Shown here: one piece after another, positions 1-53,226 of the stretch | Layout: the number at the start of each line of letters is the position of its first letter | How positions within the stretch are numbered: position 1 is the stretch's first letter | Assembly (NCBI GenBank): GCA_951406725.2 | Contig: OX597821.1 | Coordinates: 105,896,001 to 105,960,000, forward strand | Length of the DNA: 64,000 bases | Origin: Octopus vulgaris | Lineage: Eukaryota | Direction of reading: 5' to 3' | Position numbers and translations under genes: made by a program | Notes under the pieces: generated by a model | The model's database searches: none | What the model was told of the DNA's origin: nothing | Seen by the model: only the letters and a program-made list of their open reading frames with translations

Positions 1-5
1 ACGCT

Positions 6-445
6 CTCTGGCTTGTATTCATATCATTGTTCCGCTCTCTCGAGGTTTGCTTTACCGCACAACAGCCACTGGATATATCCACACTCGTGTCCGATGACTC
101 CACGCTGTCGGGCACAAGGGAGCTTGCTTCGTTGGTTGGCTGGTTTGCTGCTTGCTTGCTTACACTTACGTAATCAATGCGCACCCCGTTTGCCCGAGCC
201 TCCTCCAACGTCTTCACTTCGGAGCACTGAGCAGAGATCGCATCGCCTTAGTGCGTCGACATGCGCACGCGCTCGTGCTAGATAACGGTGACGACGACAA
301 ACAGCATCACCTTAGCCGTCGACCATCGCCGCTGTCGCCTACATAACACACGGACACACACTCCCTCTGGCTTGTATTCATATCATTGTTCAGCTCTCTC
401 AAGGTTCGTTTTACTGCACAACAGCCACTGGATATATTCACTCTC
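6..445. repeat. GC-rich direct repeat, about 81-bp copies 359 bp apart; cut by the window start
   Basis: 6-86 (ctctggcttgtattcatatcattgtt...cagccactggatatat) recurs with a few substitutions at 365-445. The spacer is CpG-rich compared with the window. Confidence 0.8.
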
Positions 446-1237
446 ATCCAAGAACGAAGCCAAAAAGCACATGCAGCAGTGTTGATATTAAATTCCACCA
501 GCCTGAAGAAATCAGTCAGAGAAGAATCCTATATTGAAGGGCAAATTCACGATGGTGCTCCAGCATTTGCGAGTCCGCGTGGCTGAAACGAATTGAAGAA
601 TAAAAAAATAAAGGGAATAAATACTTATTTTTAGCTATTCATAGATATGTGCATTATGGCTGCAGAAATAATTTCGAATCTATGTAACTTAAAGAGAGTA
701 AATGGGGAAACGGGTCACCATATATTGTATGAAGCCTAAAACAGATTTAACAATTTATAAGAATGGAAAAGAACACAAAAACATTGATAGAGAACAATGC
801 AAGCAAGAATAAGAGATATGGATGTAGGGGATAATATTGGTAGTTGGAGAGAGAAATGCGAAGGATAAATAATGAGGGAATACAGAATGGTTTAGAGATT
901 CGTCTTCAGGAGAAGACGGGGAATAATACGGAAGAAGGGGTCGATCAGTGAAACAGGTTGAAGAGAAATAGGAATGAAAAGCAGGTGCAGATAAAGGAAT
1001 GAATACAAATACGAAGTTAAGAGCGAGCAGTCTGGATTCAGGAAAGGAGTGAAGAAGAAAGCATATATTTTTAATAGCGTCTTGCTACGTTTGTTTACGT
1101 CTGTGAGTTTGTCTATATGTTTCTTTGACAGATGGTGTATGCATATATGCTTGTCTGTGTCCGAGTGTTTTTTATCTGCGTATTTCTGCGACTGTATATA
1201 TGTATGTATCTATGTATTTATCTATGTTCCTGTATAA

Positions 1238-1281
<44 letters not shown>

Positions 1282-1283
<2 letters not shown>

Positions 1284-1497
1284 CGGGAAGCTTTATGAAG
1301 ATAAAGAAAAGACGAAGGCAGGTGGAATACAAACAAATAATTCTATTAGTATGGCGCTCAGGAATATAAATAAAACAAATCTTTTACGTTTCGAGCCTAC
1401 GCTCTTCAACAGAAAGATACACAGAAAAGAAACACGGAGAGAAATAAGGAGAGAAAATAAATGCGTGCAGAAGCTAGCGAATCAACATGGCGATCTG

Positions 1498-1500
<3 letters not shown>
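1282..1500 (-). mobile_element. (TA)n-flanked Penelope-like terminal-repeat fragment with variant hammerhead
   Basis: Bounded by (TA)n on both sides, homologous to 1985-2148 in the opposite orientation, and carries a hammerhead-like fold. Confidence 0.55.
1379..1418 (-). ncRNA. minimal type I hammerhead-like motif with non-canonical core
   Basis: Minus strand reads ATCTTT-CTGTTGAA-GAGC gtag GCTC-GAAA-CG-TA-AAAGAT: 6-bp stem I, 4-bp stem II and a palindromic ACGT stem III. The core deviates from CUGANGA. Confidence 0.5.
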
Positions 1501-1545
<45 letters not shown>

Positions 1546-1867
1546 CGGTATTAGGGCGTGTATATGTCTTGAAAAAATTACAAAAATCGATTCCAGGTGA
1601 GAATGCGATCGATAAAGCCGTGGGAAAGTGCATTTGTACGCGCAAGTACATCAGCTGTTGCGATCGATACTACGCGTACGCAAGAACATTGCTCGTGCAC
1701 TTTGCGCATATTGGAATATATAAAAAAAGTTCTAGCTTTATTTCTCCTTTTGCTGGTGTCTCAAATTTAGATTAAATCAGTGTTTCCCAAAGGGGAAGCC
1801 TGTGGGACGGTCGGACAACATTTTTTGTGAAAATTTGGTTTAAAGGATTCACAATTCAGCACCGTCC

Positions 1868-1902
<35 letters not shown>

Positions 1903-1909
1903 CACAAAA

Positions 1910-1984
<75 letters not shown>

Positions 1985-1987
<3 letters not shown>

Positions 1988-2148
1988 TCTCTTTATTTTC
2001 TCTCATTGTCTCTTTCTGTGTTCCTTTCTTTGGAAGAGCGTAGGCTCGAAACGGTAAAGACTTTTATCACTTCTAAAGCCTTAAGCTAATACATCTATTT
2101 GTTGTCTACATCACCTGACTTCCTCTTCTGTTTTTGTGAATTCCCCGT
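1985..2148 (+). mobile_element. second, more diverged copy of the 1282-1500 family, inverted
   Basis: Shares gaagagcgtaggctcgaaacg and flanking similarity; bounded by microsatellites. Confidence 0.6.
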
Positions 2149-2163
2149 ATGTATGTATGTATG

Positions 2164-2208
<45 letters not shown>

Positions 2209-2875
2209 ATATATATATATATATATGAAAGTATGAATATATCTATTTGTATAGTAATTTACGTGAACTCGAAAAGAAAGTAGTTGCATTAGAGAAATTA
2301 ACGATGGAAAAATGAGATACAGTGGATAATGGAGAAAATGACACTAAACAAAATGATGTCTGGGGAGATGGGTGGATAGGGGCGGTTAAAATGTAAATCA
2401 ACACAATAATGAAATTTTGAAAAAGGGACTGAAAAGATAGGAAAGACAAAACTAGTGTGATTTTACTATATTGTCTGTGATCTTGCGGAATTTCTTTCAA
2501 TTACTTGCAATCACATGTTTGTTGACCATCACAGCGACGAATGATAATTTCTCTTGTCAATATTATAACGAGAAATATGTTTATAGATCTCGAGAGACGT
2601 ACGTCGTCAGGTTTGATTGAAGTTTAGCAAAATCTCCAGAAATTGGAAATAAATAACTAAATAGATTTTAAGAGACAAATAGGTATGACTAAAGACTTCA
2701 GTACATTATAAATGCTGGAAACAACAAAGAACTTTGAACTATGAATCATTTACATTCATTAGTAACAAGTATAATTACAGAGGTACTTTTACAAAATACA
2801 TACACATTTGTAAACAATTACACAAAAACGAGTCATGAGCACCCTTGTATACACATATGTGTGTGTCCATGTGTT

Positions 2876-2887
2876 ATATATATATAT

Positions 2888-2938
<51 letters not shown>

Positions 2939-2972
2939 CATATACACATATATATGCATATATATACACATA

Positions 2973-3026
<54 letters not shown>

Positions 3027-3174
3027 ATATATATATATAAATATTCATATATGCATATATATATGTATATGTATATATACATAGATATATGTATACATCT
3101 ATGTATATATATATATATATATGTATATATATGTATATATATAAGTACATACATATATATGTATATATATATGT

Positions 3175-3227
<53 letters not shown>

Positions 3228-3238
3228 TATATAAATAT

Positions 3239-3326
<88 letters not shown>

Positions 3327-3368
3327 GATATAGATATAAATATGTATATATATATATATATATATATT
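2876..3368. repeat. compound (TA)n/(GA)n microsatellite; representative of dozens of similar arrays
   Basis: Directly visible dinucleotide runs. Confidence 0.95.
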
Positions 3369-3780
3369 GCCCTGTCTTGCGATCAGATATCCTATCCTTC
3401 GGGTATCTCTTTTGTGTTTGAACATACACTGTATTCTTCTCTGAATAATATATAGTCTATTGACTAATGTTTCCTTTCTCGCTAGACCACTGGTAACTAG
3501 TGCCCCCGCCAACTAACCTCATGAACATAGGCCTCTTTCTGAAGCAAATTCAAAGCAACTATATTTAACAAATAAATCTTATCCTGAAAAAATTCATGAA
3601 TTTTTGTTTATAAATAAATCGCTACCCCACCCCCATTATCACCCCACTTTTCTTCAAGGCCCTCTTGGAACTTTTCACTGTCCTCAGGGGATCGATACTG
3701 CCCAATTTGGGAACCACTAGTCTTACCCATGCTAGTATGCAGAAAGAAAAACAGACGTAAAACAATTAAAAAAACTTATT

Positions 3781-3937
3781 TTTTTACTTGTTTCAGTCAT
3801 TTGACTGCGGCTATGCTGGGGCACCGCCTTTAGTCGAACAAATTTACTCCAGAACTGGCAATTATTCTGTTGGTCTTTTTGCCGAACCACTTAGTTATGG
3901 AGTTAGAAGGATGTAAACACACCAGTATTGGTTGTCA
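3781..3937 (-). mobile_element. SINE family A, 3' part
   Basis: tgtttcagtcatttgactgcggctatgctggggcaccgcc matches the family A tail. Confidence 0.8.
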
Positions 3938-3949
3938 TACACACACACA

Positions 3950-4010
<61 letters not shown>

Positions 4011-4011
4011 C

Positions 4012-4260
4012 ACAACTACTTAATAAGGAAAACTTAACAAGAAATTGTCAGGTAGATATGTAAAAACCTCATAAGAGAAAAAATTTCGAAAATAATTATT
4101 TCTTATTGAACATATTAATTTATATATAGAGGGCATATACATACATAGAGGCATATATATACATGCCAAATGCTAAGAGGGACAATTAGTCATTTCTACC
4201 AAAAATATTACTAATCCCACCGAATGCAATTTTTCAAAGTAAGACATTTAAAATAAGACA
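4012..4260 (-). repeat. inverted, slightly diverged partial copy of the 480-bp unit
   Basis: Reverse complement aligns to about 4693-4950 with a few substitutions and indels. Confidence 0.9.
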
Positions 4261-4648
4261 TTAGTAATATTTTTGGTAGAAATGACTAATTGTCCCTCTT
4301 AGCGTTTGGCATGTATGTATTATGCCTTCTAGCATGTATGTATAATGCCCTCTATATATAAATTAATATGTTCAATAAGAAATAATTATTTTCGAAATTT
4401 TTTCTCTTATGAGGTTTTTACGCTATCTACCTGACAATTTCTTGTTAAGTTTTCCTTATTAAGTAGTTGTCCTTAATTGCTAAATTTTTATTCCGAAAAA
4501 ACTTTTCCTCTCCCGAAATGCAATTCGTAAAAGTTTGCCATTTGACCGGATGTAATATATGTAAACTCACCCATGTGCTTCGTTGATGTTGAACAGTTAG
4601 CTGATCGACTTAAGCGGGGCAGGGTCGTTGTTTATTTATAATGCATTC

Positions 4649-4696
4649 AGGCCTGCTGATGAGTACGTAAGTATGAAATCACTGTGATACAGGTCT
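4649..4696 (+). ncRNA. type I hammerhead ribozyme, copy 1
   Basis: AGGCCTG-CTGATGA-GTAC gtaa GTAT-GAAA-TCAC t GTGA-TA-CAGGTCT. Canonical core, 7-bp stem I (one G-U), stem II with a GUAA (GNRA) loop, near-palindromic stem III. Predicted cut after A4689. Confidence 0.88.
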
Positions 4697-5128
4697 ATAT
4701 TTTTTAAATGTCTTACTTTGAAAAATTGCATTCGGTGGGATTAGTAATATTTTTGGTAGAAATGACTAATTGTCCCTCTTAGCGTTTGGCATGTATGTAT
4801 TATGCCTTCTAGCATGTATGTATAATGCCCTCTATATATAAATTAATATGTTCAATAAGAAATAATTATTTTCGAAATTTTTTCTCTTATGAGGTTTTTA
4901 CGCTATCTACCTGACAATTTCTTGTTAAGTTTTCCTTATTAAGTAGTTGTCCTTAATTGCTAAATTTTTATTCCGAAAAAACTTTTCCTCTCCCGAAATG
5001 CAATTCGTAAAAGTTTGCCATTTGACCGGATGTAATATATGTAAACTCACCCATGTGCTTCGTTGATGTTGAACAGTTAGCTGATCGACTTAAGCGGGGC
5101 AGGGTCGTTGTTTATTTATAATGCATTC

Positions 5129-5176
5129 AGGCCTGCTGATGAGTACGTAAGTATGAAATCACTGTGATACAGGTCT
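5129..5176 (+). ncRNA. type I hammerhead ribozyme, copy 2
   Basis: Identical to 4649-4696, offset by 480 bp. Predicted cut after A5169. Confidence 0.88.
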
Positions 5177-5312
5177 ATATTTTTTAAATGTCTTACTTTG
5201 AAAAATTGCATTCGGTGGGATTAGTAATATTTTTGGTAGAAATGACTAATTGTCCCTCTTAGCGTTTGGCATGTATGTATTATGCCTTCTAGCATGTATG
5301 TATAATGCCCTC

Positions 5313-5362
<50 letters not shown>

Positions 5363-5553
5363 TGAGAACGTGTGTCTGTCTGTCAAATTTTACACATGCC
5401 TTACTTAGGGTTCATATAGTGTCATGGGCAAAAAAAATGTTTAACTTCTTGCCTAGAGCGAGCCCACAGCAATATCATATCTTCTCCACTATTTCAGTAT
5501 TACGTGTTAAAAGTGAAACAAAAACATCTCTCTATTGTATGCATATGGATGTA

Positions 5554-5644
<91 letters not shown>

Positions 5645-5661
5645 ATATCTATATCTATCTA

Positions 5662-5712
<51 letters not shown>

Positions 5713-6451
5713 CAAAATATAAAGTTATATCTTGAGATCGTTAGTGACAACAACGCTCAAAATATATAACAGACTGGAATAGTAGTGCTCAAATGAGCTG
5801 TATACACTTTTTACCCCGAGGGGAGGCAATGCGAGCAGGAACTACGAAAGCACTACAAAATCCACAGAAAGATCATACACATACATATATTCATATATTC
5901 ATTTATATCTACAGAACAGACATAAAGCCCGACGTTTAGAAATATATAGTAATATATAAATATATAAACATCGTATAAAAATATATTGTACGCATAAGAT
6001 CGACTCGACGCTCCATAAGAAATTTAGAAATAAAAATTGCAATAAAAGTTAGAGGTAATAATAACAATTGAATTAAATATAGTAAGTAGTAATTAAATAT
6101 ATTTTATTTTATTAAAATGGTAATTAAATCGTAATATAACAATTAAAAGAAAAAATAGCAATTAGTATAAAATGTATCAAGGACTTGAACTTGAATATGT
6201 GACTTTGCATGAATGGGAGAAATTAAAAGATGAAAAATTTAATTTTGTGCAGAAGTGAATTAGTCCAGTTACTATAGCTGCTAGATTGAATTATATGCTT
6301 ATAAAGTAGCATTCAGTATCTATGAGAATTTGGAGGAGTACGTAATGTCTGGTCTTTCGCATGTAGCAGGTATGTAATTGTGCATTTGTTTCCGTGTACT
6401 ATGTGTTGAGACAGACAAGGAAGAAGCGGGCTGCCCCTCCCTAAGGGAGAG

Positions 6452-6757
6452 ATGGCCAGAAGAAGTATGTACGAAAGTGTGTCAGATTTATCGACTTCTG
6501 AAGAAGAACTTGAAAGGGCGATAAAGAAAATGGACAAGCAATTCGGCAACACATACGCAGGAGCGACAAGAACGGAGGAAACAGAAATAGACTTGGTCAA
6601 GTTGCCAAGATACCAGGCATTTATTAAAAAGGTCGGCGGTGAAGTGGAGTATAAAGTGTTTAGAGTTGAAATAGATGACGAGATAATAACAGAAATGGAA
6701 AAGAGATTTGCGATGAAAATAGAGCACAATGTGTATTACATTCAGGATAAAGTATAA
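6452..6757 (+). CDS. orphan 101-aa ORF, possibly a degenerate GIY-YIG-like/transposon-derived fragment
   Basis: Not low-complexity, and the antisense frame 6313-6729 is also open. TYAGAT and EMEKRF...HN only loosely resemble GIY-YIG motifs. Confidence 0.3.
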   Translation: MARRSMYESVSDLSTSEEELERAIKKMDKQFGNTYAGATRTEETEIDLVKLPRYQAFIKKVGGEVEYKVFRVEIDDEIITEMEKRFAMKIEHNVYYIQDKV

Positions 6758-6928
6758 AGGACAGGTAAGTGATGCTAGCGGATGGGGCCGTTAGCATCAC
6801 TTTCATTTATCATTTTCATATTTCATTTTCCATATTTATGTAATTGTGATGTTTTATGTCCCCAATGTTTGTATTGTCCCCTTCTGTGTAGCCCTTTATG
6901 GGTAATAAAGAAACGAGGTGTTGTGTGT

Positions 6929-7014
6929 AAAGAACATCCTGACGAGGGGAGTGTCAATTTTAAATATATATGTTTCATATTAATTGGCACATCTCCGAAA
7001 CTTTTATGTATTTT
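6929..7014 (+). ncRNA. decayed type I hammerhead with long stem II
   Basis: CTGACGA at 6939-6945 and GAAA at 6997-7000. Stem II is about 14 bp (GGGGA-GTGTCAATT / AATTGGCAC-A-TCTCC). Stems I (acat/atgt) and III are imperfect. Confidence 0.5.
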
Positions 7015-7168
7015 TGTAAATTTGTATATTTATCTTCTATGTATTTTTCTCTGGAATTTTAATTCGTCTTTTTAATATGTCGTTGTATGTTTTATTACCC
7101 CAAATTTTTAATTTAACAAATTTATACCAAACTACCACTAACCCCGGGAACGCCGGGTCATAATGCTA

Positions 7169-7209
<41 letters not shown>

Positions 7210-7214
7210 GCATA

Positions 7215-7372
7215 TACGACAAGCTTCCTTCAGTTTCTGACTACCAAATCCACTCCCAAGGGTTTGGTCGGCCTGAGTCTATAGTAGAAGACGTGATATG
7301 CAGTGGGACGGAACCCGGAACAATACTTAGTTGGTGTGCAAGCTGCTTACCATACATCAATCCTGCGCCTAT
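7215..7372 (-). mobile_element. SINE family A, 5' part
   Basis: Reverse complement starts ataggcgcagga and matches the family head and core. Confidence 0.75.
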
Positions 7373-7647
7373 GTATGTAAATACAATTTGACAAATGCTT
7401 GTCATTGAAAGTAATCTGTTAATCTATTTAGTATCAAATGAATAAAACCAATACTGAACAAACAACAACACTAATCTCTCCACCTATTGATCTGCTTAAA
7501 GTTATTTTCATAATGTTGTATGATTATGTTAAGGTAAAGCCAGCAGGCTGGCAGGATTGTTGCAACATCAGGGGAAATGCTTTGAAATATTTCTTCGATT
7601 TAAGGTGGGGATCTGACTGAGTCATGATCATGCTGAGCAGAGTACTC

Positions 7648-7815
7648 TAGGTGTAGAAGAGGCTGTGAAGTAAGAAGCTTGCTTCCCAACCGCATGGTTC
7701 CAGGTTGGGTCCCACTGTGTGGCACCTTGGGCAAGTGTCTTGTACAGTAGCCTCACGCTGACCAATGCCTTGTGAGTGGATTTGGTAGACGGAAATTGAA
7801 AGAAGCCGATCGAGT
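7648..7815 (+). mobile_element. SINE family A, 5' part
   Basis: tRNA-like head plus gtggcaccttgggcaagtgtc core. Confidence 0.8.
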
Positions 7816-8051
7816 ATGTATATATATATATAGTAGATCCCAAAACAGAAGAACAGCAAATCTAAAAATACACTACGCGAGGATACAGCGCATGCAAAGT
7901 ATTACCAGACCGTTAGGGAAGGGTAGAACGGTGGTTTACAGTTTCGAGCAGCACTTTTCTTCAGAAACAGAGAGAAGTCCTATGAAATGGAAAATGGTGG
8001 GAAAAAATCGCCAACGATTCACATGTGGTTACATTTTGAAAAAAAAAATGT

Positions 8052-8219
8052 ATAGGCATAGGAGTGGTTGTGTGCAAAATAGCTTGCTTACCAACCACAT
8101 GGTTCCGGGTTCAGTTCCAATGCGTGGCACCTTGGGCAAGTGTCTTCTACTATAGCCTCGAGCCGACCAAAGCCATGTCAGTGGATTTGGTAGACAGAGA
8201 CTTAAAGAAGCCCGTTGTA
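8052..8219 (+). mobile_element. SINE family A, 5' part
   Basis: ataggcataggagtgg...ccgggttcagttcc...ccttgggcaagtgtcttc, ending in a microsatellite. Confidence 0.85.
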
Positions 8220-8220
8220 C

Positions 8221-8277
<57 letters not shown>

Positions 8278-8313
8278 CGTGTGTATGTGTGCGTGTGTAT
8301 GTGTATGTATGTG

Positions 8314-8355
<42 letters not shown>

Positions 8356-9339
8356 AATATATATATATATATACATATATATGCATTTATATATACATAC
8401 ATATATATGCATATATATGCATTTATATATACATACATATATATATATACATATATACATATGTATATATATATATGTATATATATGCATATATATATAT
8501 ACATATGTACATACTTGTACCAATATTTATGTACACACACAAAAATGTATGTGCATTTGAGCGTGTATGCCCAACTTTCGAACACACGGACACTCACACT
8601 AACACACACACATGCTCAATTCCTTATATGTATTTACGCATGCATTTTGTGCACACTTCAAATGTTACTGTGCACGCTACTTACAAGGACGGTTGATGGC
8701 TTCGAAAATGACAAAGTTCTCTTTTCTAAGTGTATATGTAAATGTACATTGGAATCCATCCAACTGATAAATCTGTTCCCTTAATATAGAATATATTAAA
8801 TTTCTGATTTTGTTTTTTGGATTTTTTTCATTCTGATTTGTTTTGACAAGTTAGTAATAAAATCGGTTCGCTGAAAATGACTGGATTCAATGCATTCTTG
8901 AAATTTCATTTCATGGCCCAACGCTCAAGAGGAAATATCTATCCTTTTTTTAAAATATGCAACACAATACGATTCAATGAAAAATAAACGGTAGAAATGC
9001 AGTGATGTATTTTGTATTACTAATCTATGAAGTTTTAATGTAATGGAACCCAACGTAGCATTAAAGTATAGCTGAGAAACAAACTTCACAAATGCAAACA
9101 AATGGAGGTTCTCTATTTATATATTTATATATATGTGTGTGTGTGTATGTATGCGGGTATGTGTGCAATACACACACACACACGCGCGCGCGTGCACACA
9201 CACATATATTGTTATAAATACATGATTGAAATGCAAGCATCCATGTTCAAGTGGTACTGTGAACTTTAGAGTACATTATACATATATATACAAATGTTTC
9301 TATGTATACACACACAGAGACACACACACATACACACAC

Positions 9340-9406
<67 letters not shown>

Positions 9407-9528
9407 CACTCAAACATACACGCATACATATATATATTTATGTTTATATATATATATATAGATAGATACATATATACATTCATTTATATTTATATATATA
9501 GACATATATATATATGCATATACATACA

Positions 9529-9581
<53 letters not shown>

Positions 9582-10243
9582 TATACACACACACATTTGT
9601 GTGTGTGTTCTTATGTAATGAAATAGTCATGAACCTTAGTGAAAGTGAAAATGTTTCTTTCCCAAGTCCAATGATTTGCAAATAACTCTTTTTCTTTAAT
9701 ACGTGAAGCTGCATCTATGTGTAAGGGTGTGGTTCATGTTTGCTTATACTCGTCACTACTCCCATTCACTTTTCACCCTTCAAAGTAAATCTACGGAACG
9801 AAGATCAAAGTAACTGAAACTCCCGGCAAAATGTACAATGGTTTAACGCATCTAAAGCTTAAAATTTACAGGTGTCACATAAAAGCGCCTAATGTTGATT
9901 TAGTTGTAGTTGTTGATCGTTTGTGTTTCTATTCTCGTGTCCTAGAACGATAAGGATTGTGGCCGATTTTTAGCTCATATGAGTGACCAAGTTCTGAACC
10001 TTCTCCTGAACTCGACGCCCATCCAGTTGCTGGTTTGAAATACAGCAATTTTGCGGGGAGAGGAGAATTTGAAGTAAGAACGTAAATAGCCATATTGTGT
10101 GTTTAAATTTCTTCCCCTCAGTTTTCAGGATTTACACCGTAGAGTGGCAAAGCACAGCATGTACTGACATTTGAACACGTTTGTTACTATATTACCGTTT
10201 GGTAGCACGGACGTTTGTCAGTGAACAGGTCGCGCTAACAAAG

Positions 10244-10410
10244 TGCTGGTGTGTTTACGTCTCCTAACTTAGCGGTTCGGTTTACAAGACCGATAGAATA
10301 AGTACTAAGTCTACAAAAACTACATCCTAGGGTCGATTTGTTCGACTAACGGCGGCGCTCCAGCATAGCCGCTGTTAAATGACTGGAAAAGTAAAAGAGT
10401 AAAATAATAA
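10244..10410 (+). mobile_element. SINE family A, 3' part
   Basis: tgctggtgtgtttacgtc...ggcggcgctccagcat...aaatgactgg followed by an A-rich tail. Confidence 0.8.
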
Positions 10411-11704
10411 AGTTTCTACCATCTTGTAAGCTGGAGCGCAACGCGCGCTTCTTATTGAAACGTTTATCAACAAAGGTAAATATATGAACTCGTATTTCTC
10501 TTTCTGCATTCTCTGCTGAATCTAGCACTAAACCCTGAAGTAACTATAATACATGTAGTAGACTTTCCCCCAGACATATGTTATTACATCCTGATATCTT
10601 TAAAAGTAATGAACTACTATATAAAATAGTAGAAACTATAATCGAGCAGATATTAAGGACAGAATAGACCAGGAACTAACAGTTCTTGAAAGTGATTAAG
10701 GATAGGAGGAGACCTTTGTTGTTTGACTTTAAAGGTTTAGTTTTAACCCTAAAATATAAGAAGATCCTGACTTATAAGTGGTTGAGTATTCCACAGAGAG
10801 ATGTGCATATGAGGTCATTCTTAGCGGGACACATCAAATGTGAAAGACTAACTTTTGATCTTATGGGTACAACAAATCCAACGTATTCAATATCATTTTA
10901 GATTCTCAAATTTCTCTCAGGATATATGCATGAACACCAGGTTATAATATCTGAAATTTACACCAGAAACCACGCTGTAGGATCGAAACTAGCATCTTCA
11001 GATTGTGATGTGACCTTAACCATTCAGCCCCATAGCACCAACTGCAGGTGTAGATACTTCCAGATATAACCACATCTCTCAGTCTTTCCTTTTCTCTCTA
11101 CATATACAGACGCATGTCCGTGTGTGCATATACGTAATTTCGTATGCATATACATGTATACATGCACGTGTAAACATGTTTGTACATATGTACAAAGTGA
11201 GTGGCCTATCATCAGGAACAGAGAGATGAGTGCATATAACCTCGGCTAGAAACCCTTTGCCTCTTACGCCATTTGCATTCTGATTTTCTTTAAATCCTAA
11301 ATATAACCTATTCTGCATGTGATCTTATATGAAGCAGACGATTTGGATGGATGTGTAAATTGGCGTCTAGTTTATCAAAGTGATTGTCAAATCCTACGCG
11401 ATTTCTCTGCAGCTGTTATAGTTATAGGTTGAGAGGATACAAGCAAAACATTTCCTTACCAACGGTTTAATCTGCGAGGTGTATTGTTAAAGTAATTGAA
11501 ACAAAAATCAATATTGGTTTTGAATATGTGTACGCAGCAACACAAACACAGATATGCAGACGTGCACGAATTTATATCTGTGTGTATGTATGTGAGTACG
11601 TGCGTGTGTGCGCATACGTAGATGTTTTTTTATGTTTGTGTAATAAGCATAAACGTATGCTTATACATGCATACATACATACATACACAAACACACACAC
11701 AAAA

Positions 11705-11757
<53 letters not shown>

Positions 11758-12025
11758 AATATATATAAGTTCAGCAAAATTTAGATTCAAATGAATATGC
11801 TGCTTGCTTTGAGTATATATATATATATATGTATATTATAAAACAATTATTCTTAGCACAAAACCATACACGCATACATACATACGTACACACATATATG
11901 TGTATATGTATATATGTTTCTGTCTCCTTAACTCCCTCTCTCCATCACACAGATTCACTCTTTCTCTCTCTCTCTCTCTCTCTCCCTCTCTCTTTCTCTC
12001 TGTTTGTGTGTTTGCGTGTGAAAGA

Positions 12026-18581: not shown

Positions 18582-19070
18582 AAGGCGGTGAGCTGGCAGA
18601 AACGTTAGCACGCTGGGTGAAATGCTCAGCAGTATTTCGTCTGTCACTACGTTCTTAGTTCAAATTCCGCCGAAGTAGACTTTGCCTTTCATCCTTTCGG
18701 GGTCGATTACATAAGTACCAGTTTCGCACTGGAGTCGATGTAATCGACTTAATCCGTTCGTCTGTCCTTGTTTGTCCTCTCTGTATTTAGCCCGTTGTAT
18801 GTAGTAAAGAATAGGTATTTCGTCTGCCGTTACGTTCTGAGTTCAAATTCCGCCGAGGTCGACTTTGCTTTTCATCCTTTCGGAGTCTATAAATTAAGTA
18901 CCAGTTACGCACTGGAGTCGATGTAATCGACTTAATCCGTTTGTCTGTCCTTGTTTGTCCTCTCTGTGTTCAGCCCCTTGTGGGTAGTAAAGAAATAGGT
19001 ATTTCGTGTGTCGTTCAAATTCCGCCGAGGTCGACTTTGCCTTTTATCCTTGCGGGGTCGATAAATTAAG
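18582..19070 (+). mobile_element. SINE family B, head-to-tail multimer
   Basis: Head aaggcggtgagctggcaga; units restart at 18814 and 18998 with ggtatttcgt. Confidence 0.88.
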
Positions 19071-30650: not shown

Positions 30651-31348
30651 CCGCGCGATTAAACGAACATACGAACACATAAAATATTTTCTTCCGCCTG
30701 ACGGATTTTTCAGCAGTGACCAGTGCGTAGCGCTTTTTACCAACTTGCGGCCGCGCACATATAGAACAGTTCACACACACATGTTTCTAAGTAGATTTTG
30801 ACTCGCCCCATATAATACACCTAATATTCTTTAACTAGTCAGAACCTTAGTCTCGGTCACAAAGAACATCTACGCACCCCGTGCTCTCACCCACCGGAAT
30901 GACCGCTGCCTGACCTGTTAAAATCTTCAACGCACCCACCACCCGATTTCAACATACAAGATAAACAGTTTGGCCATGGGCTCTTAGGAGCCTCGTTCGA
31001 TTTGTTTTGCTGCGCCTCTGTTCTGTTTTTGTTTTTGCCAACGGAATTCCTATTTCTTCCTGAAGAGAAAGACACAATACGGTCTCCTTATTCAATCGGA
31101 ATTTGGTAAATTGTGGCTTTCGAAACACGTGTAGAATGCAATAAAACAATTTCTGTTCAATCTTCGCTCAACTCCATTTCTTCAATTCACTACTAATATT
31201 AAAATTCAATTATCCGCACCAACGCACGGTTGCAACACCATATGGTTGTACCTCCAACCGTGCTGTCTTCTGCTGTGATTTTTGCTACCAAGGTATCGGT
31301 TAAACTTTTGATTAATCTGCAACAAGATTATTCATCTTTCTATTTCAC

Positions 31349-46004: not shown

Positions 46005-46114
46005 ATTAATAATTAATTCTCGTTTATTTCCATCTTAAAGTGACCGTGTGTGTACATATATATATATGTGTGTGTACATATATATATATATATATATAAT
46101 ATATGTGTGTGTAT

Positions 46115-46180
<66 letters not shown>

Positions 46181-46344
46181 GCGATGGGCTCTTTCAATTT
46201 TCCACTAAAAATCCACTTCCAAGGATTTGGTCGGCCCGAGGCTATAGTACAAGACACTTGTACATATACAGACACTCGCGCGTACTCGTATATGTGTTTA
46301 CTTATGTATAAATGCTTCTGTATAAATATGTATATATATATAGG

Positions 46345-47859
46345 TAAAATATGCCCCATTCATAAAGGAGGTAGCAGAGCGGAAGCCAAGAACTACAGAC
46401 CTATCTCTCTGACCTCACACATCAGCAAGGTCATGGAACGAATAGTCAGAAGGAAGCTGATCACCTTCCTTGAAGAGAATGACTTGCTGCCCGACACCCA
46501 ACATGGTTTCCGACCAGGGAGAAGCTGTTTAACTCAGCTCCTACAACACTATGACTGGGTGCTGAAACGGCTGCTCAACCACTCAAATATAGAAGTGATA
46601 TATCTCGACTTTGCAAAGGCCTTTGATAAAGTCGATCATGGAATGATATGTCACAAACTGCGTGATCTCAACATAGTTGGAAAACTGGGAGAATGGCTTC
46701 ATGACTTTCTGAAGGATAGAAGTCAGGTGGTAGTAGCCAATGGGGCCACCTCCATTAACACACAAATAGTGAGCGGTGTTCCGCAGGGCACTTTTCTGGG
46801 ACCACTACTGTTCATAATGGCCCTCTCAGACATGCCCTCAGCCACGCAGAGAGCCACGATCACAAGTTATGCAGATGATACAAAAGTTTCACAGGCAATA
46901 CAGAACCCTGAGGACACTAAACACCTGCAATGTGAGCTGGACGAAATATACAAGTGGGCTGAAAAGAATAGCATGCAGTTCAATGCTGGAAAGTTTCAAG
47001 CTTTATACTATCAGCATGCAAAACTGAATGCAATACCCAATGAATACACTGGACCCGGAGGGATTGCAATCCCAGAGGCACAATCAGTGCGTGACCTGGG
47101 TATTCACATGAGTGATGACGCAACCTTTCATGTACATGTTGCTAAACTGACAATGAAATGTAGACGGCTGGCTGGATGGATTCTTAGAACCTTTAGAACA
47201 AGAGAACAAGGAACCATGATGGTCCTCTGGAAGACACTTGTCCTAAGCCACTTTGACTATTGCTCTCAGTTATGGTCACCATCCAGTGTCAAGTTGATCA
47301 CAGAACTTGAGGCGATCCAACGAAGCTACACGAAGAAGATAGCCTCTATGCAGAATGTAAGCTACTGGGAAAGACTCAAGAGATTAAAATTATATTCCCT
47401 GGAGCGTAGGCGGGAAAGATATGCCATAATATACATCTGGAAGATCCTGGAGGGAAGTGTCCTGAACTTTGGCATCGAGAGTTACGCAAATGCCAGATCT
47501 GGGCGCCACTGCGTGGTGCCTAGGACTCCAAACCTGCCATCAAGATGTAGGACAAGATTCTGTGATAGCCTGGGCTTCCGAGGCCCACAGCTCTTCAATA
47601 TCCTCCCGAAGAACCTGAGAGACCTGCATGGGGTGGATACAGATGTCTTTAAAATGAAGCTGGATCTCTTCCTGTCAGGTGTCCCAGATGAACCAACTTC
47701 ACGGCAGGAGGGGCAGATGAGGGCAGCTGCATCGAACTCTCTCATGCACCAAATAGCAGTTGCTAGAAAGCCCCATGAAGTGAAACCAAGTAGCAACACC
47801 AAATGGCGGTGCCCCAGCATGGCCACAGCTCATAAGCTGAAACTAGAATCAATCAATCA

Positions 47860-47862
<3 letters not shown>
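46345..47862 (+). mobile_element. 5'-truncated CR1-group LINE; uninterrupted RT frame of about 500 aa
   Basis: NYRPISLTS, QHGFRPGRSC, YLDFAKAFDKVDH, SGVPQG..LGPLLF, YADD, DYCSQLWSP and LYSLERRR; ends in (AATC)4. The ORF-track start at 46103 is microsatellite/SINE read-in. Confidence 0.95.
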
Positions 47863-47911
<49 letters not shown>

Positions 47912-48252
47912 TCCTTATACATTCTAAAACCGAGTGACCGATTTTGACGTATAAGGGATCAACAGATTCAGTACTCTATCGGCTATAAGCTAAACTGAAG
48001 TTTCATTCACATACTTGCATTTCAAAAATTTTACATCATAATCTTCTCCATAAATCAACTATCGTAAACATTTTATACGACGACTACGATTGCGTCACAT
48101 TTTCTATGTGTGAGTACCTTAAAAGACATCAATCAGCATGACACACATTTTCACTCACTCACACTGTCTTTCTCTTTGTATCTGTCTCTCTTTCTCTTTC
48201 TATCTCTCTCTGTCTCTTTGTCTTTCTCTGTCTCACACATACGCGTACGCAT

Positions 48253-50367: not shown

Positions 50368-51662
50368 ATGTGTGTGTGTCTGTGTGTGTGTTTGTGTGTG
50401 TGTATGTATGTGTGTGTATATGTATATATATGTGTATGTATATAAAACAAAACATGTTTAAATTAACTAAAATATATTTCACCTCATATATCAGGAAACT
50501 CTTTGCGTGTAGGGACATATATATTTCTATACGTATAATTTTCCACGTTTTCTTATGTGAGCATTGGAATTATAAACTTAGCAAATCTTTGCACTTTTGA
50601 TCTCCTTATAATGTTGAACGTAATGTCATTATTATTGTTCCTTGGTGTTTTGTTGAGTATACTGTACTTTTGCGTTAATCAGATTTTTACTGGTGGTGAT
50701 ATACATTGGCAACGGAATGGAATAAGTGTGTACAGTATTGATTTTACTTATTTGTTTTGTACATAGAGACAAATACAGTTCTGAGCTGAATTATTGTAAG
50801 ATAATATCTTAGCACAGCGCATTTATTTTGACGTTTCTTTGTCAACGTGTCCGGTGTAAAAGTTAGTGGAGATTTAATAAAAATGTCGAAACAAATATAG
50901 CTTGAAGACACGTCTGAAAGGATAATCTTAGCATGAGGTGAAAGTTGAAATTTCTGATTTTATTCGCTGTTATGGCACGGCGCTAATTGCTGATTCATAA
51001 ATTTCTATTCCAAATATTACTCTACAAAGAATAAAAACATCTTTACGTTATATAGATCATTATAAACGTAGCATCATTAATTCTATCCCTTAAACAAGGA
51101 AAGTGATAATTGACGACGTAGTTTTATTTAAACAAAAAGACTATTTACCCAGCTTTCAATTCACAAAGGCTGTGTCAATTAAACATACATATTTGTGACA
51201 ATTATACAAATACCTTGCCACAAAGTTATTATGTGAAACCGAATGCGTTAGAAACTTTCGTCATTATAAATAATATATGCAATTTAAAATTTTAGGTATT
51301 ATACATTTAAAATTATACATCTCAGTGAATACAATTGAAAACGTAAATTGAGAAGTATCAGGCAGTTTCAATTATTGTCAAAGAACAAATAACTGTAAAA
51401 AAATATCTCATCAGCTTCATTTTTATGAGAAAATTTGATGACTACTGTCATCCAGCTAAAACTCTATTTATAAGTGACTTGCGAAACGGGATAATTAATG
51501 TGAGACAGGGTATAACCGTAAACCAGCAAGCACGTATTATGGGCTGAGAAGCAAATATGGAATTTTATTTATCAATTTCACAGCTAATTGTAATATGTTA
51601 GGAAATAAGCGTGTAATACGTATGATGTGCAAATTATAATTACATACTGCTACTACTACTAA

Positions 51663-51742
<80 letters not shown>

Positions 51743-51755
51743 TTAATAATAATAA

Positions 51756-53226
51756 GGATCAGGAGAGAATGTTATCGCAGAGTAAGAGCAATACTCAAGA
51801 CAGGGCTGAATGTGAGAAACAGTATCGAAGCAATCAATGCTTTAGCCATACCAGTCGTAACGTACAGTTTCAATATCGTTAACTGGTCTATTACTGAAAT
51901 ATGTAATCTTGACAGAAAAATACGAAAACTTTTGACAATGTATAGAATGCACCACCCTAAGGCAGATACAGACCGACTTTATCTGCCAAGAAAAGAGGGA
52001 GGCCGTGGAATTTTACAACTGGCAATAACAATGAAGATTGCTACAATTGGCCTAGACACCTACCTGAAAAACTCTGAGGACTGGATGTTAAAACCTGTCT
52101 CAAAACATGAAAACAAGAAAGCATCATACTCAGTAACAAAACAGGCGAAGGAATATCTAAGTGAATTCCGAATACAACAAATTTCGGAATTAGAAATAAA
52201 AGAAACAAACACAGAAAAAGCTAAGCGCATGAAAGCCCGAGCTAAAACTGCGACCTTAGATATTCTGAATGATAAATGGCAAGAAAAACCTCTCTATGGC
52301 AAATACCCAAAGGGAGTGAATAATGCAGTTGTTGACAAAGCCCTGACCCATCAATGGCTGATGGCCTCCGGCTTAAAATCTGAAACAGAAGAGTTTATCA
52401 TAGCAGCTCAAGATCAATGCCTACCAACAAGAAACTACCAGGCCAACATATTAAAGAACGGCAGTAGCCCAACATGTTGTGTATGTCAACAATAAAATGA
52501 AACCATTGATCATATTGTCTCCAAGTGTAGTCTTCTAGCGCCTACAGAGTATCTCATCAGGCATGATAGAGCTGCACAATATATTCACTGGGTAGTTTGC
52601 AAAACACCTGGATTTACCCCATGAATAAAACTGGTGGGAACACAAACAACCTCCAGTGCTTGAAAATGACCACATCTCACTCCTCTGGAACTTCACCATT
52701 CAAACTGACAGAAAGATAGATGCAAATAGGCCAGACATCATATTGAAAGACTTCAGACAAAGAACATGCCTCCTCATTGATATGACTGTCCCAATCGATA
52801 TAAACGTATCCGTCAAGACCTACCAAAAACTGAGCAAATATAAAGATCTTGAAATAGAAGTCAGTAAAATGTGGAAGCTGAAGACTAAAACAATACCTGT
52901 TGTCGGTGCCCTGGGAATAATAGCGAAAGGGGCTGATTGCTACCTAACTCAGATACCAGGAAACCCAAAATTGGCAGAAATTCAAAAGATAGTGTTCATG
53001 GGAACTGCTCATATCCTACGCAAAATACATTCTATGTAATCTGAAGGTTTAAAACAAACATAATTTTTTTTTTTTTAGACATTCACTAGTACAACATCCC
53101 AAACACCCCAAAAATATGGCACGCTAGGCATAACAACAACATGAACTTCCAACCTGTTGTCTCTTGAGGTCTCTGGGTGAGACTTGGAGTCAACTTGTAC
53201 AAATATAAAGCAAAAATCAAACATAG
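51756..53226 (+). mobile_element. 5'-truncated R4/Dong-like retrotransposon inserted in (TAA)n
   Basis: RLYLPRKEGGRG, CCVCQQ*NETIDHIVSKC...RHD, and RPDII..LIDMTVP..KLSKYKDL. One premature stop at 52493-52495 plus a frameshift; (TAA)n on both sides. Confidence 0.93.

Follow-up and report, generated by a model that had tools for sequence, protein, structure and literature searches.

A tandem 480-bp element inside a (TA)n tract

The window, meaning here the whole 64,000-nucleotide stretch of Octopus vulgaris DNA that was analyzed (contig OX597821.1, positions 105,896,001 to 105,960,000), carries at 4010-5323 an element set inside a (TA)n tract, the left and right parts of which (3953..4009 and 5324..5358) form the target site. 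Most of the element is a direct arm on the plus strand (4260..5323) made up of 2.217 identical units: 4260-4843 matches 4740-5323 exactly, and the period is 480 bp. The unit has a GC content of 33%, and its longest open stretch in any frame is 54 codons. The perfect, ORF-free 480-bp repeat of about 2.2 units described in the sequence-only reading is borne out by these values; the start of the element as a whole has to be moved from 4261 to 4010, since an inverted arm and a junction insert had been missed, as had the flanking (TA)n runs.

The inverted arm (4010..4253, minus strand) is 5'-truncated, about 96% identical to the unit, and corresponds to positions ~13-272 of the monomer, where monomer numbering refers throughout to the predicted 480-nt monomer or circle at 4690..5169 (+). 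It contains no hammerhead. The two arms meet head-to-head at a 6-nt templated insert (4254..4259, +) that repeats 4240-4245. As described below, copies of this family have two fixed outer ends, which we call A and B. At this locus the outer end of the inverted arm, at 4010, is a B end with an 8-nt deletion, and the direct arm terminates in an A end (5313..5323, +; monomer 154). The corresponding internal sites are a putative first reverse transcriptase (RT) start at A (4833..4843, +; monomer 144-154), whose motif is also found at the A end of a Hydra-like element, and a putative second start at B (4959..4967, +; monomer 270-278). Any target-site duplication would be masked by the (TA)n on either side. 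The T5-T6 runs in the sequence argue against transcription of the unit by Pol III.

Just upstream of the A site is a 23-bp internal duplication (4309-4354, 4789-4834, and 5269-5314) that is absent from sister families. One unit elsewhere in the family has an extra copy of this 23-bp repeat.

Each full unit contains a type I hammerhead

Two type I hammerheads (types after the part of PMC4209133 that was available) can be read from the sequence on the plus strand, at 4649..4696 and, 480 nt further on, at 5129..5176. In the first, stem I is formed by AGGCCUG (4649-4655) and CAGGUCU (4690-4696), the core by CUGAUGA (4656-4662) and GAAA (4675-4678), and stem II by GUAC-GUAA-GUAU (4663-4674), with 4 bp, of which the first is G.U where G-C is usual. 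The stem III arm, UCAC-U-GUGA (4679-4687), is followed by U4688-A4689, giving the cleavage triplet AUA. Cleavage is predicted from the motif after A4689 and A5169, the same positions as were proposed previously. With its 5-bp palindromic arm the ribozyme is distinct from the helix-III-less "minimal" form, and cleavage may be less efficient owing to the G.U pair with which stem II begins.

An Rfam scan of positions 1-12000 and of 4400-5290 returned no hammerhead even at an E-value of 10, only microsatellite-driven miRNA and weak snoRNA matches, so the evidence for a hammerhead here is the motif together with the covariation seen among relatives. The earlier claim of one hammerhead per full unit is therefore sustained by the motif in both units and by stem covariation, though not by the profile search.

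The relatives come from a search for hammerheads with the same stem III, this family being left out of the pattern, which gave 931 matches (control, 0). Among 20 of these that were sampled, 14 align to the unit at 61-89% identity and six have the hammerhead type alone in common. Across 44 distinct hammerheads from the fetched loci, the first pair of stem I is A-U in 27 and G-C in 11, and the second is C-G in 30 and U-A in 10; the second pair of stem II is C-G in 19 and U-A in 19. The core and stem III of these 44 are uninformative, as both were fixed by the search pattern.

In predictions for the monomer, the catalytic fold (-9.4 kcal/mol) is less stable than a fold without stem III (-12.4 kcal/mol). 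Since stem III is predicted at +0.8 kcal/mol as a hairpin alone and at -10.1 kcal/mol as an intermolecular duplex, the predicted mode of cleavage is as a dimer. For nine Xenopus retrozyme dimers, the available part of Li et al. (10.64898/2026.07.22.740005) reports cleavage in vitro for one and none for eight.

The 480-nt monomer as a whole is predicted to fold at -129.5 kcal/mol (z = -6.8, with none of 100 shuffles as stable; z = -5.9 when folded as a circle), with a predicted multibranch domain around the A and B start sites (4728..5003, +) whose closing stems are kept in sister families. Sister units of 459-503 bp likewise have predicted fold z-scores of -2.8 to -6.1 (25 shuffles each). In a consensus fold of the whole unit from five sequences, 22 of 123 pairs show double changes; the covariation term is unfavorable (+1.24), and the whole-unit structure is for this reason suggestive only.

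Copies of the unit are dispersed and free of coding sequence

We searched the 2.8-Gb assembly (227 contigs) for further copies. A 36-nt stretch of the hammerhead has 333 exact matches, compared with none for its reversed control, and a 241-bp piece of the unit gave 46 matches among the 40 scored of 808 candidates, nearly all of them 100% identical. We examined 51 distinct insertions, including that in the window: 37 from the 100 listed of the 333 exact hammerhead matches and 14 found with the 241-bp piece. As an exact match to the hammerhead was how 37 of the 51 loci were chosen, low variation of the hammerhead within the family is no evidence of its conservation.

The copies consist of 1-32 units arranged head-to-tail. 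They show no internal region between LTRs and no LTR-type architecture, and in none of the 51 is an ORF of a Penelope-like element (PLE) continuous with the unit, as judged by an ORF scan and by tblastn over 85 sequences (flanks of ~3.5 kb for most insertions and 1.5 kb for seven; L064-L067 by tblastn alone). The ORFs that do lie near copies are LINE-type RTs, a mariner-type transposase, low-complexity frames, and one Hydra piece, in L040, which is a separate insertion beyond a (TA)n run.

These data bear on whether the unit might be the pseudo-LTR (pLTR) of a coding PLE, the copies being its 5'-truncated, ORF-less insertions. Standard pLTR anatomy does include a hammerhead, inverted arms, and a one-ended tail, and the survey covers 51 loci, with 100 of the 333 exact matches listed. 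Against this, units abut head-to-tail with no ORF between them, up to 32 in a row; arms longer than one unit run into another unit and never into coding sequence; and sister families at 63-88% identity behave alike. We consider this explanation very improbable. That every other copy would be the pLTR of a coding element does not hold for the 51 family insertions, and the genome-wide copies support the view, already put forward from the window, of a recent, ORF-free, retrozyme-like element mobilized in trans by a Penelope-type RT.

A sister family at ~75% identity adjoins one copy (40 scored of 2054 candidates). Two copies of family 2 that lie 7.6 kb apart on C6 were considered as a pLTR-ORF-pLTR arrangement and rejected: there is no ORF between them, and they represent a local duplication. 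More distant ORF-free hammerhead elements (L137-L140, L142, and L143) have the same stem III palindrome and microsatellite ends and are not alignable to the unit. In one family member (L011:2032-2523), a single unit has a 13-nt insertion within stem II of the hammerhead.

Most two-armed insertions pair one A end with one B end, in (TA)n tracts

A run of (TA)5 is found at both ends of 46 of the 51 insertions and at one end or more of 49, compared with 99 of 1229 background windows. The outer ends of the copies fall at two fixed places in the monomer, A at ~144-160 and B at ~270-278, with a spacing of ~120 nt. The majority of insertions (38 of 51) are two-armed and head-to-head, and 34 of these 38 have one A and one B end; no copy has A/A or B/B. 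Were the sites used independently, 34 mixed pairs out of 34 would have a probability of ~6e-11. The A + B class comprises 29 copies assigned by script (in three of these the B arm is only 10-20 nt long) and five assigned by eye: the window copy, the C24 copy, the C8 array, and two that end 15-30 nt short of A. The other two-armed copies consist of three with one off-site end and one without assigned ends. Among the 13 one-armed copies, nine have an A end and four a B end.

The inner ends, in contrast to the outer ones, are scattered over the entire monomer. BLAST boundaries had at first suggested that 5' ends cluster at the cleavage site; exact mapping refutes this, placing none of 84 inner ends at monomer 1-11. 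At 34 junctions between arms we find overlaps of 1-6 nt in 14, blunt joins in four, and inserts in 16. We also considered whether the inverted arm arose when the first cDNA folded back and was copied, and reject this since several copies have arms of which neither includes the other; the arms of L006 do not overlap at all, and L034, L040, L045, L046, and L059 provide further cases. The degenerate copy L067 was left out of the variant, inner-end, and arm-haplotype counts, as were the first 60 columns of a misaligned segment of L050 from the arm-haplotype comparison and the inverted arm of L050 from the within-family column count.

An assembly artefact could be invoked for the tandem or the inverted arm at the window locus, given that the units are 100% identical and that small deletions such as those in the inverted arm are typical of error-prone hairpin regions. 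The same anatomy is repeated at dozens of loci with differing flanks, however, under a rule of fixed A and B ends that no assembler would generate, and the rare haplotype of the window copy recurs in both arms of another copy (L060) on a different contig. An artefact is therefore extremely unlikely.

The two arms of an insertion usually carry the same haplotype

Across 32 two-armed loci, the arms have 39 minor alleles in common, where 2000 permutations gave a mean of 5.2 and a maximum of 21, and they differ at 36 columns, where the permutation mean was 106.6 and the minimum 74. At least one minor allele is present in both arms at 17 of the 32 loci. The least concordant arms are those of the window copy and of the C8 array; at the window locus the arms have one minor allele in common and are three substitutions and several small deletions apart. 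Such arm-shared haplotypes imply that both primings took place on one RNA molecule or on RNA from one source locus.

The template must also have extended past the predicted cut. As many as 63 of 82 arms cross the cleavage site, which implies a circle or an uncut multimer, and we conclude that the template was probably one of these and never a lone linear monomer. Copying of a circular template, as proposed previously, thus fits the data in this respect, and an uncut multimer would account for the crossing arms equally well. Arrays provide a further indication: in five of 12 multi-unit arrays, there are variants fixed in all units and yet absent from the other sampled arms, a pattern that successive rounds of copying on a single monomer would produce and that favors the circle.

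Array length and identity are less informative. The longest array (L025-L027; G000:C1:64.640-64.655 Mb) has 32 units over 15.6 kb, bears an inverted arm, and ends normally at A and B; some of its variants recur in separate units (C85A in three, a 3-nt deletion in two). These recurrent variants indicate that it also grew locally or was mis-assembled, so array length is no proof of a circle. Perfect identity between units, which had been taken as a sign of circular copying, is by itself insufficient for the same reason, the recurrences pointing to local expansion as well.

A different account of these arrays is that the hammerhead is largely an idle passenger: the element would move by way of uncut read-through transcripts from arrays already in place, there would be no free circle, and long arrays would grow by unequal exchange. 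The repeated variants of the 32-unit array and the lack of inner ends at the cut site are both in keeping with this, and the anole PLE inserts mostly from uncut RNA, its hammerhead mutants still being inserted (PMC11167929). It fits less well with the stems flanking the core, which are maintained by compensatory change over many subfamilies, or with the five of 12 arrays that have private variants in every unit; in addition, one- and two-unit copies would need to give rise to longer daughters. On balance we find this account doubtful, if by no means far-fetched.

A Hydra-clade element is the best candidate partner

An RT fragment adjoining one copy of the retrozyme led us to a Hydra-like PLE family that is young and abundant in the genome (125 scored of 16,412 candidates). 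It has an intact 722-codon ORF with a DKT motif, a CxCX5C linker, and a C-terminal endonuclease-like region, and a hammerhead upstream. Pfam gave nothing significant for this ORF, whose atlas neighbors have HTH_animal and GIY-YIG families; the element matches the definition of Hydra in the available part of 10.1101/2021.04.23.441226, the clade assignment resting on the motifs and the atlas neighbors. Copies L123/L124 (G000:C4:75253745-75255910) and L125 have intact frames of 718-722 codons, a tandem period of ~5.2 kb, and a 73-nt tail, and the position of a frameshift is common to many Hydra-like copies.

The ends of this family resemble those of the 480-bp element in kind. Out of 36 termini with a hammerhead, 15 end 23-28 nt past the cut, 10 end at 96-101, and 11 continue into the ORF, which gives two fixed sites with a spacing of 73 nt, set in (TA)n. 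Seven of 11 stretches have one of each site as opposing ends, one is A/A with an atypical end, and three are complex or one-ended. The A-end motif of the 480-bp family is also the A-end motif of the Hydra-like element, at the exact end point in both, and does not occur elsewhere in the 846,085 bases fetched. Beyond ~30 nt at the A end we detect no homology of the unit to the young Hydra-like element, and none was found to two older Hydra-like families. In free alignments of the two elements, 189 of 500 shuffles did as well for the whole unit, and 16 of 500 for the region between A and B, which is marginal.

The enzyme could instead be borrowed from another (TA)n-targeting PLE clade, such as Naiad or Neptune, with the A motif convergent or due to chance in AT-rich sequence. 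The match to Hydra is a short one that does not reach significance in a free alignment, and Naiads prefer (TA)n and are recorded from octopuses. Against this, both elements have the motif precisely where they end, and it occurs nowhere else among the fetched bases; it is Hydra, too, that is young and abundant here and has a hammerhead, a feature that Naiads lack (10.1101/2021.04.23.441226). We regard borrowing from another clade as rather unlikely. On these sequence comparisons Hydra is the best candidate partner, not a proven one.

A proposed mechanism of insertion

We propose, with good though not complete confidence, that the element in the window is a recent copy of an ORF-free hammerhead tandem element, a non-LTR retrozyme, that is likely transcribed, is predicted to cut itself into circularizing 480-nt units, and is likely inserted in trans by a PLE RT/endonuclease, most likely of the Hydra clade. 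Published work on PLEs offers the framework. The PLE protein studied in PMC11167929, for which a dimer is predicted, nicks both strands of AT-rich DNA, extends them, and starts reverse transcription at two sites inside the RNA, the spacing of which equals the genomic tail; hammerhead cleavage is dispensable in vitro. The tail is usually at one end only, according to the part of 10.1101/2021.04.23.441226 available, and head-to-head arms are described in Arkhipova et al. (PMC3846280, seen in part). In light of these descriptions by Frangieh, Craig, Arkhipova, and their coauthors, the A and B ends are best interpreted as a pair of RT starts, with a tail of ~120 nt and one start per nick.

Cleavage of the transcript would likely proceed best as a dimer via the palindromic stem III, and by analogy with known retrozymes a host ligase of the RtcB type would close the 480-nt circle. 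The enzyme would then nick both strands of a (TA)n tract, and each free 3' end would prime cDNA synthesis within the RNA, from A in one case and from B in the other. Both cDNAs would halt at variable points and be joined head-to-head through microhomology of 1-6 nt or a short templated insert; one-armed copies may be events in which the second priming failed.

A more specific version, which we offer tentatively and think will probably need revision, is that a Hydra-type RT acting as a dimer primes two times on a single 480-nt circle, with A and B primed from separate nicks, and that the polymerases circle it while displacing each other's cDNA, leaving on either side of the head-to-head joint multi-unit arms with a common haplotype. 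If true, twin rolling-circle reverse transcription would be seen directly in a genome, and it would be known which enzyme moves animal retrozymes and from which RNA start sites.

Relation to known retrozymes and Penelope-like elements

By every sequence-level feature, the element meets the description of metazoan non-LTR retrozymes, a class already described. In the available parts of PMC7229834 and 10.64898/2026.07.22.740005, these have tandem units measuring some hundreds of base pairs with one type I hammerhead each and no ORF, GC below 50%, a strongly self-paired predicted circle, and dispersed copies, with PLEs in the same genome. The 480-nt unit is above the 150-450 bp given in the former source and within the 51-972 bp given by Li et al. 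in the latter, so that it is no longer unusually long, as first supposed. Class features in the same texts include self-cleavage in vitro, linear and circular monomer RNA, and, when present, a target-site duplication of >4 bp; the present family is known from sequence alone. It also departs from the class as portrayed there in its strict (TA)n targeting, its head-to-head arms, its two fixed ends, and the absence of detectable homology to the pLTR of a coding PLE past ~30 nt. Plant LTR retrozymes differ in having a type III hammerhead in LTRs where the octopus family has type I topology and tandem units.

Among PLEs, a close parallel in mechanism is PAc, the Poseidon PLE of Anolis (Frangieh et al. 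2024, PMC11167929), which also has two internal RT starts downstream from the hammerhead that define a one-sided tail, an AT-rich target, and extension of both strands (in the octopus family, as read from insertions). PAc is autonomous, however, and its canonical tail is 30-40 bp as opposed to ~120 nt, while the octopus family uses each site once per two-armed insertion and targets (TA)n. Hydra-clade PLEs are alike in (TA)n insertion, hammerhead, and inverted or tandem anatomy, but encode an RT and an endonuclease, whereas the 480-bp element is noncoding and unalignable to them outside the A site. MRC1 and other nonautonomous Chlamys PLEs, in contrast, are green algal, belong to a (CA)n-biased clade, mostly lack hammerheads, and resemble their autonomous partners at the 3' end (for these and Hydra, the available part of Craig et al. 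2021, 10.1101/2021.04.23.441226).

In the main-text literature covered, partly in excerpt, we found neither the 480-bp family nor any cephalopod retrozyme described, and no retrozyme with paired start sites; such a family may be listed in the supplements of PMC7229834 or of the 2026 preprint. PLE enzymes as movers and the circle as template are proposed, not shown, in the portions seen of the papers that define animal retrozymes (PMC7229834; 10.64898/2026.07.22.740005). The octopus family is young enough for its insertions to still record the reaction, in start sites, target, arm pairing, and template identity, and, together with the intact Hydra ORF of 722 codons that this genome contains, it offers a defined RNA, a candidate enzyme, and a target for testing both mover and template. 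One start site per nick would be a general PLE rule that can be counted in any genome.

Other features of the window

A second, unrelated hammerhead-like motif lies at 6930-7170 (+), with its core at 6939, a long interrupted stem II, and almost no stem III. About 170 nt after it there is a hairpin of high GC content together with a (TA)n run, and the whole resembles one end of a further Penelope-like insertion; tblastn of the 6930-7170 region against the Hydra protein gave no match. Upstream, at 6390-6755 (+), is a 110-codon open stretch that is possibly a remnant of the same element. A further CUGA-N-GA...GAAA motif with a paired stem II occurs at 31060 (+). At 18632-19070 there are 2.4 tandem copies of a 183-bp SINE-like repeat, which appears similar to octopus SINEs. 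Finally, 46100-47944 and 51626-53036 appear, from the look of their translations, to be remnants of LINE-type RTs.
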